Assembly: GCA_964106915.2 (NCBI GenBank)
Contig: OZ066928.1
Strand: one strand, 5' to 3'
From: Podarcis gaigeae
Lineage: Eukaryota
DNA: 64,000 nt
Positions 16,010 through 47,570 of the stretch are shown here, piece by piece. Position 1 is the stretch's first letter; each line of letters starts with the position of its first letter. The translations under genes were made by a program, and so were the position numbers. The notes below the pieces were generated by a model. It was not told the origin of the DNA. It saw only the letters and a list, made by a program, of their open reading frames with translations, and ran no database searches.

Positions 16010-16760
16010 ATCATAGAATTGGAAGGAACCCTAAGGTACATCTAGTCCAACGCCCTGCAATCTCAACTACGACAGATGGTAATCCAACCTCTACTTAAAA
16101 ACCTCCAAGGAAGAAAAACCCACCACCTTTCGAGGGAGTCTGTTTCACTGTCAAACAGCTCTTACTGTCAGAAAGTTCTTTACAATGTTTAGTTGTAATC
16201 TGCTTTCATGTACCTCGAAGACATTGGTAGGGGTCCTATGGAAGAAAACAAGCTTGCTCCTTCTTCAATGTGACAACTCTTTAGATATTTGAAGATGGCT
16301 ATCATGTCTCCTCTCAGTCTCCTCTTATCCAGGCTATACATACCTAACTCCCTCAACCATTCCTCATAATGTTTGGTTTCCAGACCCTTGATCATTTTGG
16401 TTGCCCTCCTTTGCACACGTTCCTGCTTGTCAACATTCTTCTTAAATTGTGATGCACAGAACTGGACACAGTACTCCAGACAGAACAGAGTGGTACTATT
16501 ACTTCCCTTGACCGGGACTGTGCTTCTGTTGATGCAGTCTGGAATAGCACTAGCTATTTTGCTGCTATATCACACTGTTGACTCATGTTAAGCTTGTGGT
16601 CTACTAAGACCCCCTAGATCCTTTCCACAAATATTACTGGTATCCCCCATCTTATATTTGTGCATCTGGTTCTTCCTGCCTAAGTGTAGAATCTGACATT
16701 TTTCCCTACTGAATTTTATTTGGTTAGTTTGGGCCCTGTTCTCCAATCTCTTAAACCACT
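16010..16760 (-). mobile_element. CR1 LINE 3' fragment
   Basis: Translates to QRRATKMIKGLE...YEEWLRELGMYSLDKRRLRGDMIAIFKYLK and FSREKCQILHLGRKN (CR1 ORF2 C-terminus), followed by the tail. Confidence 0.93.
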
Positions 16761-30005: not shown

Positions 30006-30505
30006 ATCTGCACTCATACTATATCTAGCATTGTCTGTTACACAAATGCCCACTTCTCTATAGACATATTATAATAGGTCTATGATAACCAATTTTTTAT
30101 CACTAAAAGTAAAGGCAACTCCCGTTTTGTGCAAGTTCAAAGAACACATGTGAACAGTTTTTGAATCTGGAAGAAGAGGGAACCGGGGGCACAGAGGGGG
30201 TGGAACAGGGCAGGTTTACTTACACACACACCGCTGAAGCATGCAATGACTCAGAATGCAAGCCCCGTGCAAATTGGGGGTTGCCTGTAGTTTGTTCAGA
30301 ACTGTTAGCTATGTTGTGGTTTCCCCAAAATTACCATTTTAAATGGGACCCCCACAAGGATTTCAAAAGGGCACACATCTCAAACACATTCTTCCTCCTT
30401 TGCTCAGAGAAGTGTTAAGAGTTAAGTATTAACTCTTAACCTTGAATTCAGAACAAAAAAAATTCCTTCCAGTAGCACCTTAAAGACCAACTAAGTTAGT
30501 TCTTG

Positions 30506-30543
30506 GTATGAGCTTTCGTGTGCATGCACACTTCTTCAGATAC
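30506..30543 (-). ncRNA. Identical minimal hammerhead ribozyme motif on the opposite strand
   Basis: Exact reverse complement of 30714-30751. Confidence 0.8.
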
Positions 30544-30713
30544 ACTGAAACAGAAGTTACCAGACCCTTCTATATAGTGAGAAGGTGGGGAGGGGTATTA
30601 CTATATAGGCTCATCACAGCTATCTGCCAATCACCCATTCCCACCACCCTTCTGAGTAATACCCCTCCCCACCTTCTCACTATATAGAAGGGTCTGGTAA
30701 CTTCTGTTTCAGT

Positions 30714-30751
30714 GTATCTGAAGAAGTGTGCATGCACACGAAAGCTCATAC
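30714..30751 (+). ncRNA. Minimal type I hammerhead ribozyme motif (PLE-associated)
   Basis: GUAU-CUGAAGA-A-GUGUGC(AU)GCACAC-GAAA-GC-UC/AUAC. The conserved CUGANGA and GAAA cores, stem II and stem I (GUAU:AUAC) are present; predicted cleavage is after C30747. Confidence 0.8.
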
Positions 30752-31469
30752 CAAGAACTAACTTAGTTGGTCTTTAAGGTGCTACTGGAAGGAATTTTTT
30801 CTGTTTTGACTATGGCAGACCAACACGGCTATCTATCTGTAACTTGAATTCAGAGTTCAGAATCCCAAGCTAGAGAGTAAGAGAGGACTGTTTTGGACTC
30901 AGGGAAGAGAACTGTATCATAAAGGAGACAGCAGCAAATACAGTATAAGGATAGCAATATGTACAGAAGCTTGGCATGCCTATCTAGATAATACAGCAAT
31001 CAGAATGTTGGTAGAGCACCTTGTGGGAAACGTCTTGTAGGACATTGCTAAGTGCACACAAGCACTGAAAGCTGAACAGCAGACCTCAAGATGCTAAGCC
31101 TCAAATGCAGCAGGCAAGACTAAACAGGATGATTCTTCAATGCCTGATTCAAACAAGGCTTTTAAAAGGAGAGAAGAAACTAGCTTAGACTGTCTGAAAG
31201 GAGGAACAAGTAATCACAGTCATCCCTATACCTTCCCAGGCATGGAGAAAAAGGGCTTGAGGTGCAAACAGCTCCCTTCAGATCTGACTCAGATGCCTAT
31301 GCAGCTCATTGACCCAGGGCTTGTTAAAAAGCCATGGAAGCTTATTTCAACACCAATGCTTGGCTTTAGAAAAGCATGAAGTAAAATGTTAATGTGCTTG
31401 CATTTGTATTTTACTGCCACCTTTCCCATAAAATTCAATTCCTATTTTACATGGACAGAAAAGAACATA

Positions 31470-31721
31470 CAGTGGTACCTCTAGATGCGAATGGGATTCA
31501 TTCCGGAGCCCCGTTCGCATCTAGAAGCAAACGTAACCTGTGTCCGCACATGGGCGGGCCACATTTTGGCATTTCTGCGAATGCGTGTGACGTCATTTTG
31601 AGCGTCTGCGAATGCACAAGCGGTGAAACCTGAAAGTAACGCGCTCTGTTACTTCCGGGTTGCCGCGGAGCGCAACTCAAACACGCTTATCCCAAAGCAC
31701 ATTCAACCCAAGGTATGACTG
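31470..31721. mobile_element. Tc1/mariner (Tigger-like) MITE
   Basis: TA-CAGTGGTACCTC...CAAGGTATGACTG-TA; CpG-rich. Confidence 0.85.
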
Positions 31722-32164
31722 TAATAGAAGTCATATCCTAATTCATTCTCCATCCATTCTCCATCCATGGGAAATTGACACATCTTCTACCAAGAGTTAC
31801 TTGGCAAGTCACCATCAATGGGCAAAGCAGCTTCAGTTCTCAGATGAATCACACTAGTAAAAATCAAACCCTTGGAATCTGGAACTGAGGATTTCCCTTC
31901 ACATGCACTAGCTTCTTCCTCTGCTTGGTGGGGATTTGACATGGTGATACTTCCTAGTGGCTAAAGAGTAATGGAACAGAATAATATCACACACTGCTCT
32001 GAAGACTAAGAATAAGAAACTAATTATGTAAAAACAGCAGTCTGCTGATTCTGGACTCTGGCTCTACCTAACTTTTTCTCTGATCCGTCTACAATTGGTT
32101 TTGACCCAATCTACCACCAGTGTATGGCCTCCCACAAAACTAAGTTTACCATTTGACCATGGAC

Positions 32165-41525: not shown

Positions 41526-42497
41526 CATAGAATCATGGAATTGCAGAGTTGGAAGGGACCCCCAGGGTCACGTACTTTAACCCCAGCAACGTAGGAATTT
41601 CAAGTAAAGCATCCATGACAGATGGCCATCCAACCTCTGCTTAAAAACCTCCAAGGAAGGAGAGTCCGCCACCTCCTGAGTCAGTCTGTTCCACAGCTCT
41701 TACTGTCAGAAAGTTCTTCCTGATGTTTAGAGTCAGAATCTCCTTTCTTGTAACTTGGATCTATTGGCTCGGATCCTACCCTCCAGAGCAAGAGAAAACA
41801 AGCATGCTACATTTTCCATGGGACAGCCCTTTAGATATTTGAAGATAGCTATCATATCTCATCTCACTTTCCACTTCTTCAGGCTAAACATACCCAACTC
41901 CCTAAATCATTCCTCACAAGGCTTAGTTTACACACCCTTGATGTCAGTGGCAGATTTAGGGCAGCATGACCAATTCTGCCGCACTGGGCAATGAGCCTAG
42001 GGGGCTGCAACTATGACATAATAAATTGAACAGAACGGAAGATGAGAGACTGGGGTTGGGGTGGTGAATTTTGGCCTTGCACAGGTCGCTGTTGAAATAT
42101 GAAAGAACAAAGTCCACCCGTCATGATTATCTTGGTTGCCCTCCTCTGCAAACATTCCAGCTTGTCAGTATTCTTCTTAAATTGTGGTGCCCAGAACTGG
42201 ACACAGTACTCCAGGTGTGGTCTGATCAAGCTAGAATACAGTGGTACTATTACTCCCCTTGACTGGGACACTGTACTTCTGTTGTTGATGCAGCCTAGAA
42301 TAGTGTTAGCTTTTTTTCTTTTTCTTTCCTGCTGCATCACACTGTTGACTCAGATTAAGCTTGCGGTCTTCCAAGACCCCTAGATACTTTCACATGCGCT
42401 ACTAGCAAGCCAGGTGCTCCCCATCTTAGATTTGTGCAGCTGGTTATTCCTGCCCAAGTGCAGAACCTTACATTTTTCCCTATTGAAATTCATTTTA
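41526..42497 (-). mobile_element. CR1 LINE 3' fragment interrupted at about 41945-42122 by a short DNA-transposon-like insert
   Basis: KANTILGCI...[36 protein letters not shown]; the continuous motif cccttgatcatcttggttgccc is split by cagtggcagatttaggg.... Confidence 0.9.
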
Positions 42498-43577: not shown

Positions 43578-43643
43578 AACTGGCACACACCAGTAGTGCC
43601 ATCTCTATAAAGCTCCATTTCAGCTGATCAAAGGCAACCAATA

Positions 43644-43885
43644 CAGTGGTACCTCAGGTTAAGAACTTAATTCGTTCTGGAGGTCTGTTCTTAACCTGAA
43701 ACTGTTCTTAACCTGAAGCACCACTTTAGCTAATGGGGCCTCCTGCTGCCGCTGCGCTGCCGCTGCACGAGTTCTGTTCTCATCCTGAAGAAAAGTTCTT
43801 AACCTGAGGTAATATTTCTGCATTAGCGGAGTCTGTAACCTGAAGTGTATATAACCTGAAGCGTATGTAACCTGAGGTACTACTG
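43644..43885. mobile_element. Tc1/mariner MITE, inverted sister copy of 709-950
   Basis: The same TIR and internal sequence in opposite orientation (tttagctaatggggcctcctgctg). Confidence 0.92.
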
Positions 43886-44619
43886 TGCCCGGGAGTTTTA
43901 CTAACGCTCTGTTAGGAGGACTGTAACAGCAGAGAAGCCCTTAACAAATTGATTTGAAAAGCCTACAAAACATTACAGGCCATTCCAAATTCTTAGTGCT
44001 TGCCAATCCAACATTGCTTAGACTTAGACAGGCTCACCTGGATACTTTTGCAGTGATATCACCATATGGCTCAATTGTCAGATCAAACATACATTTCTCT
44101 AACTTGGTAAACAGATGATATTCCCAGAACTGGATAAAGACTTTCCTAAAATATTATATGAGTTGCTGGGGTGTTTCAGAATATATCAGCATATCATCTA
44201 AATTTTAGTGTATCATTGATTTTAGTATATCATTCATAAAATGTTCAAAGAAGGCTGAAGCATTGCAGAGTTCAAAGGGCATTACATTGTATTCTAAATT
44301 CCCATAATGTGTTTGAAGGACCATCTTCCATTCATCCTCCTCTTCAATGTGTACCACATCTAGCTTGATAAATCCACAAGTTCTCAACTAGCTCAGGGAT
44401 AAAAAGCAGTGGGTTGCAATTCCAGATGGTAACAGCATCCAGGGCTTCATAATCATTACACAGACGTAATTCATACTTCTTTTGACAAAGAGCATGGGTG
44501 TAGATGTTGGGGAGGTGGAGGGGTGGATAAAATCCCATCCAAGATGCTCACACACAAATTTCTGGAGGGCAACTACATAGTACAATCTGTGACAGGGAAG
44601 AGAAGCGACTCCCATGAGA

Positions 44620-47248: not shown

Positions 47249-47570
47249 CCATATTTTTCCATGTATAAGACAATGTTTTTTGCTAAAAAAAGCAGTCAAA
47301 AATTGGGGACCATCTTATACATGGATGGTGAATGCACAGGGGTTTGGGTTTGGGCTTGGGCTCTGGTGTGGGCAGCCTGGGCTTAGGCTCAGATGGCCCA
47401 GGCTCAGGTTTGGGCTCTGGCAGCATGGGCTCAGCCTCTGGTTTGGGCTCTGGCATGGGTGGTCTGGGCTCGGGTTTGGGCTCTGGCTCTATCCCAATTT
47501 CTTAATTTTGTCTTAAAAAAAATAGGGGTCATCATATACACGGGGGCATCTTATACATGGAAAAATACAG
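47249..47570. mobile_element. Tc1/mariner MITE with an internal G-rich minisatellite
   Basis: TA-CCATATTTTTCCATGTATAAGA...TCTTATACATGGAAAAATACAG-TA with internal ggtttgggctctgg repeats (47340-47490). Confidence 0.85.

Follow-up and report, generated by a model that had tools for sequence, protein, structure and literature searches.

A head-to-head stub of a Penelope-like retrotransposon with a hammerhead ribozyme on each strand in Podarcis gaigeae, and the insertion scars of its family

EN+ Penelope-like elements (PLEs) are described as units in which an inverted, tail-less copy abuts a forward copy, with a one-sided tail of 30-40 bp that carries the first ORF codons, a TATA motif in the end repeat and a short duplication of the target (PMC8557442; PMC3846280). 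The inverted repeats reported for D. virilis Penelope (PMC2377424) have the same layout as the palindromes of the family described here. Metazoan PLEs carry minimal hammerhead ribozymes with an extra base before G10.1, a G10.1-C11.1 pair, a palindromic helix III and a 4-bp helix I, and hammerheads paired on opposite strands, 100-700 bp apart, have been described among them (PMC4209133). The protein of PAc (Poseidon_Ac), a PLE of the green anole, nicks and extends both DNA strands from two start sites that bound the tail, and insertion proceeds without need of ribozyme cleavage, the unprocessed RNA being the substrate (PMC11167929). Non-LTR retrozymes are non-coding, hammerhead-bearing and derived from end repeats, and are organised as head-to-tail arrays (bioRxiv 10.64898/2026.07.22.740005).

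The locus analysed here lies at 30441-30854 of a 64,000-nucleotide stretch of P. gaigeae DNA (contig OZ066928.1), which we call the window. It resembles the EN+ PLE unit in all of the respects named above and differs from it in that no ORF is left and in the length of the duplication, 12-13 bp in this family versus 8-10 bp in the rotifer examples; the pairing of one long with one short arm, counted below, is not quantified in the parts of PMC8557442 and PMC3846280 on which we draw. As far as its scars can be read, the family agrees with PAc in having two RT start sites that bound the tail, extension of both strands, a hammerhead dispensable for insertion and no RNA ends at the cleavage site (PMC11167929). 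It differs in possessing a CX4CX2C linker, which Poseidon elements such as PAc are described as lacking, and in the position of its start codon, 65 nt past the cut site; in PAc the ORF begins at stem II (PMC11167929). The hammerhead core is that of the metazoan minimal type, with a helix II of 5-6 bp, fully palindromic, compared to 7-8 bp in Schistosoma (PMC4209133). We rejected classification as a non-LTR retrozyme since the locus is one head-to-head pair and not a head-to-tail array, although short tandems exist elsewhere in the family. The layout, the opposite-strand hammerheads and the heavy editing of lizard Penelope RNA are all already published, and the locus itself is ordinary, a short remnant like thousands of others from an element of a known kind.

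The locus and its parent family

The insertion is 402 bp long, non-coding, and made of head-to-head copies inside a 12-bp target-site duplication (TSD), whose left copy (30441-30452) is repeated exactly on the right (30843-30854) and is single in the empty sites of two relatives (see below). The original prediction of 146-bp arms (30457-30602 and 30655-30800), 52 nt apart and enclosed by this TSD, was borne out: the arms are exact reverse complements in the window sequence and in fact extend to 150 bp with one mismatch (30456/30801), the inverted arm beginning at 30453. They form the longest close-set inverted repeat among 163 pairs in the window. What had been called a 52-nt spacer has that length, but 48 of its bases (30607-30654) belong to the forward copy of the element; family matches begin at 30607 and run on into the right arm, leaving four junction bases (30603-30606) that are not family sequence. 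These four occupy the middle of an 8-bp palindrome (30601-30608), the same 8-mer that the element has in its TATA region.

The inverted arm (30453-30602, minus strand) is a tail-less, 5'-truncated element end that spans -92 to +57 relative to the ribozyme cut site. It contains a minimal hammerhead (30506-30543) with a predicted cut after 30510 and a likely RNA start at 30543, and a TATA motif (30571-30576) found by motif scan, with a putative promoter function; the CCAAT motif is absent from this arm. The forward arm (30607-30842, plus strand) is also a 5'-truncated element end, spanning -140 to about +95, and is 98-99% identical to many loci. The motif scan marks a putative Pol II promoter in it (30627-30686), made of CCAAT (30627-31), GC-box-like (30662-70) and TATA (30681-86) motifs; we infer promoter function because the 5' ends of family copies pile up 31-33 nt downstream of the TATA motif, with the other two motifs further upstream. 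The minimal type I hammerhead of this arm follows at 30714-30751, with a predicted cut after C30747 and likely RNA 5' ends at G30714 and G30712. The locus is not symmetric: a tail of about 38-40 nt (30805-30842) is found on the right side only and is missing from the left arm. It holds a start codon (30812) and the first 11 or so codons of the ORF, identical to the opening codons of the 910-aa ORF in the full-length copies L192 and L194; nothing more of the ORF remains. Since family contigs mostly have T at 30801 and family RNA has C at 30832, the forward arm carries two private changes. Outside the element, a host hairpin with a 12-bp perfect stem and a 3-nt loop (30414-30440) directly abuts the TSD; such stems are rare in the window, where 3 of 1,368 45-mers have one of at least 10 bp. 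A target preference for cruciforms was considered and rejected, stem lengths being alike in 87 near and 87 far flanks of other insertions.

The presence of one hammerhead per strand was confirmed by hand: the catalytic boxes, the extra nucleotide at 9/10.1, the G10.1-C11.1 pair, the palindromic helix III and a helix I of 4-5 bp are all found, in line with the anticipated minimal type (PMC4209133). Stem II, the GAAA, the cleavage triplet with C30747 as its last base and a stem I of 4 bp (30714-17 paired to 30748-51) all lie where they had been placed and have their mirror images on the minus strand. Stem II had been drawn with 6 bp, but this needs a 2-nt loop, and the predicted fold has 5 bp and a 4-nt loop. 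The suggested Rfam check failed to return the motif, with no hammerhead at gathering score or among the 19 matches up to E=10, a miss that lowers Rfam membership only, because helix III is reduced. Matches to miRNA families in Rfam fall far below gathering scores and reflect the perfect hairpin.

A search of the 1.51-Gb genome to which the window belongs gave 1,757 candidate matches, 40 of which were scored, and the ribozyme 34-mer has 9,271 exact copies in it (0 for the reversed control). Longer copies continue upstream into an ORF with a GIY-YIG and an RT domain; in the natural copy L135, Pfam RVT_1 is matched with E 9.4e-11 and GIY-YIG with E 2.6e-5. A single ORF with RT and C-terminal GIY-YIG is present in the natural copies L018, L135, L192, L194 and L202, and three of the 15 long loci fetched have an open frame of 910-915 aa with its start codon inside the tail. 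L194 reads as end repeat, 910-aa ORF, end repeat, and pseudo-LTRs on both sides are also found in L196. The Penelope-like origin that had been proposed thus rests on the RT and GIY-YIG domains of the family ORF, and pseudo-LTRs, an inverted 5'-truncated copy, a one-sided tail and a short TSD, all features of EN+ PLEs, are found with it; inverted pseudo-LTR arrangements, as had been noted, are published for PLEs (PMC8557442; PMC3846280). By eye, the family ORF has a CX4CX2C linker upstream of GIY-YIG and a CxxC...H...H motif, and the DKG motif that PMC8557442 names can be recognised as well. In the account of PMC8557442, a CX2-5CxxC linker is a feature of Neptune and Nematis and not of Penelope or Poseidon, and Neptune and Poseidon are the PLE clades found in the vertebrates of one preprint (bioRxiv 10.64898/2026.07.22.740005). 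Judged by its sequence, the locus is a stub of an abundant EN+ PLE family with a Neptune-type endonuclease linker; the family label Neptune would follow by elimination, from the linker, the CCHH motif and the clade survey.

Four of the 20 sequencing runs that contain the stretch were compared: X1 (organism A), X3 (B), X4 (C) and X5 (D). X4 and X5 have the empty site, one contig in each joining 30440 to 30843 with the 12-mer single and the 402 bp absent; these contigs carry 456 and 649 flanking letters, respectively. Because the site is empty in two of the four runs, the insertion is supported as young; flank divergence from the window is 1.2-1.4% in X3, X4 and X5. Among the contigs listed, those of the X1 and X3 flanks end 22-28 letters inside the element, in the inverted arm on the left and in the tail on the right, below the 31-letter criterion for a filled site; organism B likely carries the insertion, and X1 is possibly the source sample. 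The original prediction had offered recent insertion or gene conversion as the reason for the likeness of the arms. Youth stands, and conversion is unneeded: the arms differ at one base, 11 of the 44 arm pairs sampled below have neither mismatch nor gap, and at the X3 flank divergence of 1.35% at most one mismatch in 150 bp is expected with probability 0.40. The perfect 146-bp symmetry, and the fact that no short-read contig of the runs compared spans the whole element, could point to a fold-back artefact of assembly or library. This is extremely improbable in view of the TSD, the one-sided tail, the arm mismatch and the empty sites in relatives, and in a second organism (X3) the flank contigs run into the inverted arm from the left side and into the tail from the right; the locus is real.

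The window holds other repeats. A short abundant one occurs at 708-966 and 43628-43886 in inverted orientation, 87% alike and with similar termini, and a related piece lies at 31467-31700; contig depth is very high at 31432-31767. This repeat resembles a Tc1/mariner-type MITE. Two copies of a longer repeat (16035-16721 and 41553-42495), 80-89% similar, are presumably CR1-type LINE 3' ends, and a 145-aa frame with a Cys/His-rich stretch and no Pfam match (61801-62235, plus strand) resembles, in our estimation, the C-terminus of a LINE-1-type ORF2. A minisatellite of four copies of about 33 nt is found at 47351-47487.

Layout of the insertions and a model for their origin

The first 100 matches to the exact ribozyme 34-mer, from the first 8.5 Mb of contig C1, were grouped into 88 insertions. 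Half of these (44/88) are outward-facing palindromes, and the other 44 have no inverted partner within 120 bp. All but one of the palindromes (43/44) pair one tailed with one short arm (p=2.6e-12 versus a coin toss), and the 3' ends fall into two clusters about 40 nt apart, at +54 to +65 and at +93 to +97 from the cut site. A flank repeat of at least 7 bp is shared in 38 of the 44, with a mode of 12-13 bp. In 21 of the 43 pairs the 5' reach of the short arm exceeds that of the tailed arm by more than 5 nt, in 10 the tailed arm is the one that extends further, and 12 are level; our locus belongs to the nested class, its short arm lying wholly within the long one.

Five further loci align over most of the 414-bp query at 86-96%, as might be expected if a non-autonomous hairpin element of a MITE-like or retrozyme-like kind transposed as a constant unit of 400 bp. 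Each of the five, however, has its own inner breakpoints, the total length of the 44 sampled palindromes ranges from 154 to 2,068 bp, and the locus has a one-sided tail and no tandem array, so that such an element is largely refuted and very improbable. A MITE or DNA transposon was rejected on similar grounds, the tail lying outside the right arm and breakpoints and lengths varying between copies.

Rather, the locus was probably made in one event, in which element RNA was copied from both ends of a staggered DNA cut, with the hairpin and a passenger ribozyme as the outcome. The endonuclease would cut the two strands 12 nt apart; one DNA end would then prime cDNA from the far start site (about +97), so that the tail is copied too, and the other from the near one (about +57 to +60). 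From there both cDNAs would extend toward the RNA 5' end, with stops here at -140 and -92, from which the template would be a 3' end repeat or a read-through RNA. Joining of the two cDNA ends head to head, with four extra bases, and fill-in would yield the duplication. The hairpin would thus be a by-product of double-ended copying, the templates would be uncleaved RNA, and the ribozyme at the locus would likely be a passenger.

That the two ends are made together is argued by the 43/44 rule of one tailed and one short arm. Fold-back self-priming, proposed for rotifer PLEs from junction palindromes (PMC3846280), would instead have a single cDNA or antisense RNA fold and be copied back into the inverted arm, and the 8-bp junction palindrome and nested short arm of our locus, which alone cannot decide, are also compatible with it. 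A fold-back copy should nest in its template, and this is where the family speaks for priming from both cut ends: in the 21 of 43 pairs whose short arm reaches further 5', each arm has sequence of its own and neither is a sub-copy of the other, although trimming during end joining could give some of these 21. The short arm moreover ends at a fixed place, matching the second start site described for PAc (PMC11167929), and no microhomology that could seat the 52-nt loop is seen at 30654/30655. We therefore regard fold-back as unlikely. Priming from both cut ends is a model read from insertion scars; PAc, the Poseidon-type element on which it leans, is of a different clade, and with 44 of 88 insertions partnerless the model does not cover all insertions.

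In L018 the inverted piece ends at the cut site, which suggested cleaved RNA as a template. This was rejected, since breaks are not in excess there: genome-wide, 16 fall at the cut site versus 17 and 9 at the neighbouring bases, 12 of the 16 stem from one repeated variant or cluster on contig C31, and most of the nine loci inspected turned out to be substitutions or small deletions. On C31, 12 near-identical short ribozyme-bearing stubs with common flanks lie near the contig start (L211-L222, about 21-100 kb); the stub has multiplied there as part of a larger repeat, which may be a subtelomeric satellite. Two further loci (L208 and L209) lack exactly the four bases of the 3' strand of stem I, just past the cut site.

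The 5' end of the element RNA and the role of the ribozyme

More than a quarter of the 9,271 copies (27%) break at the first base of the ribozyme. The templated T before G30714 is replaced by G in 1,659 copies and by A or C in 880, G making up 65% of the replaced bases versus 29% expected from window composition. In 188 anchored copies examined for their start, 30 of whose loci had been chosen for tandems, 33 start at -33, 22 of these with G, and 35 start at -35, with T upstream in 27 and G in 4; all other starts with a non-G template have G in 13 of 79. We infer that RT runs off the 5' end of the RNA, the added G coming from the cap or from terminal addition, and that the hammerhead likely occupies nucleotides 1-38 of the element RNA. 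With a start at the ribozyme's first base, nucleotide 1 of the RNA would be the first of stem I, and cleavage would take off 34 nt. At starts equivalent to 30712, the upstream T often stands in a short TG run, and may reflect RT slippage on a GU-GU RNA end. A 3' splice site was considered as the cause of the pile-up, since a pyrimidine tract and a CAG end at 30712 and an intron of D. virilis ends at helix I (PMC4209133); it is disfavoured because the upstream bases vary among copies and the loose ends of RNA agree only to 0.41-0.50. Among the titles and abstract openings listed by literature searches, none is on a PLE RNA start at hammerhead stem I or on an added G; either may be in print, for example in supplements.

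Of the 30 loci L142-L171 (30 of 101 matches), in which the tail runs into the ORF, 25 then return to the first bases of the ribozyme (-38 to -32), frequently with a G added, so that short head-to-tail units some 180-190 nt long or longer result; where the return falls is biased by the search pattern, which demanded 42 nt beyond the second ATG. The arrangement resembles template jumping at the 5' end of the RNA and could be how retrozyme-like arrays are seeded. We tentatively raise the possibility that the hammerhead forms the first 38 nt of a capped mRNA and that cleavage after nucleotide 34 decaps the ORF message, a self-decapping switch that removes the RNA from translation. If so, this would explain why cleaved RNA is not copied into the genome, and RT that copies to the cap and adds a G could jump to another RNA and seed short retrozyme-like tandems. 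Stubs that keep both TATA motifs would then be outward-facing promoter pairs scattered genome-wide.

At the locus, RNA folding predictions depend on where the transcript begins. For a self-started RNA from 30714, stem I has a pair probability of 0.70-0.81 and stem II of 0.96-0.98; for RNA that begins in the minus arm, the lowest-energy fold has stem II and lacks stem I; and in read-through RNA both stems have a probability of 0. The original prediction that a read-through hairpin would compete with the ribozyme is thus supported by the predicted fold. Its corollary, that the antisense arm always comes first, holds for read-through RNA only: both arms keep a TATA motif and a likely RNA start, and a transcript begun there would contain the ribozyme without the antisense arm. 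Nor is a silencing contest special to this locus, 19 of the 44 sampled palindromes having both full ribozymes. Because each strand has one ribozyme, a cis dimer is impossible here. Published PLE hammerhead monomers were inactive and dimers weak (PMC4209133), another monomer needed protein (PMC11167929) and one of nine Xenopus dimers cut (bioRxiv 10.64898/2026.07.22.740005); the lone monomer in self-started RNA would probably cut only with the help of the element's protein or of a second RNA. At this locus the ribozyme is likely a passenger, since copies appear to be made from uncleaved RNA, read-through RNA would bury it in a duplex and self-started RNA would hold a lone monomer. In organism C, family-wide RNA depth does not drop at the cut site, and no RNA ends are listed there, a weak test in fragmented libraries.

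The predicted loss of both ribozyme stems in read-through RNA, together with the editing of family RNA on both strands in organism C (see below), could be taken to mean that host transcripts crossing the locus are either cut or folded into dsRNA, regulating a host gene. We consider such a switch highly improbable: the insertion is absent from two relatives and has thousands of like copies, neither strand offers a cis dimer partner, and the unique right flank has almost no reads among the RNA runs of organism C (0 for X23 and X24, about 2-3 for X21), although the DNA run of that organism lacks the insertion. A Pfam scan of 68 of the 103 stop-to-stop frames of at least 90 aa in the window, which skipped frames touching N stretches and which short exons would escape, revealed no host exon, giving two weak matches below cut-off. 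No clear CpG island was found near the locus. No RNA datasets containing the locus are listed, which carries no weight on its expression.

Editing of family RNA and significance of the scars

RNA runs of organism C were mapped on 30603-31460, the reads being family-wide. In both paired runs, A>G changes at 30750, 30761, 30765, 30776 and 30777 are enriched in first-mate-minus reads, and T>C changes at 30749, 30759, 30763 and 30764 in first-mate-plus reads (p under 1e-3). At 30765, A>G reaches 25.5% and 40.0% versus 2.2% and 0.8% on the other strand, and genome copies have 38 G versus 14,332 A. None of the nine sites has a G upstream, two are UAG, and they sit in the shared core of the inverted arms, just downstream of the cut site; the T>C changes of the one-sided tail (30834 and 30836) have no strand bias. 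Against this, other variant types are strand-biased too (30667, 30803 and 30819, among the positions listed), T>C at 30774 is partly a subfamily allele and T>C at 30674 is skewed to the unexpected strand in one run. The strand-reciprocal A-to-G pattern supports ADAR editing of family RNA in organism C. The original suggestion of an ADAR substrate thus finds support for the family in a relative's RNA; the locus itself lies outside that support. Lizard Penelope has been described as a massively edited LINE-class repeat (PMC5625713), and the likeness extends to Penelope RNA as a major target and to the lack of G upstream, with G favoured downstream. PMC5625713, in the part drawn on here, gives a site count, whereas here the sites are located in the core of the inverted arms and none is assigned to the one-sided tail. 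The palindromic scars may explain in structural terms why lizard Penelope is edited as heavily as PMC5625713 describes.

On its own the locus matters little, beyond serving as a usable presence/absence marker among relatives. Part of the family counts may already be contained in the supplements of PMC11167929, PMC4209133 and PMC8557442. The integration of PLEs and the function of their hammerhead count among the open questions on these elements (PMC8557442; PMC11167929), and the scars of this family bear on both. Its thousands of young scars give testable numbers: two fixed start sites, the 43/44 pairing and a stagger of 12-13 bp for integration, and a sharply defined 5' end, at the first base of the ribozyme and with a G added, together with no excess of ends at the cleavage site, for the hammerhead.
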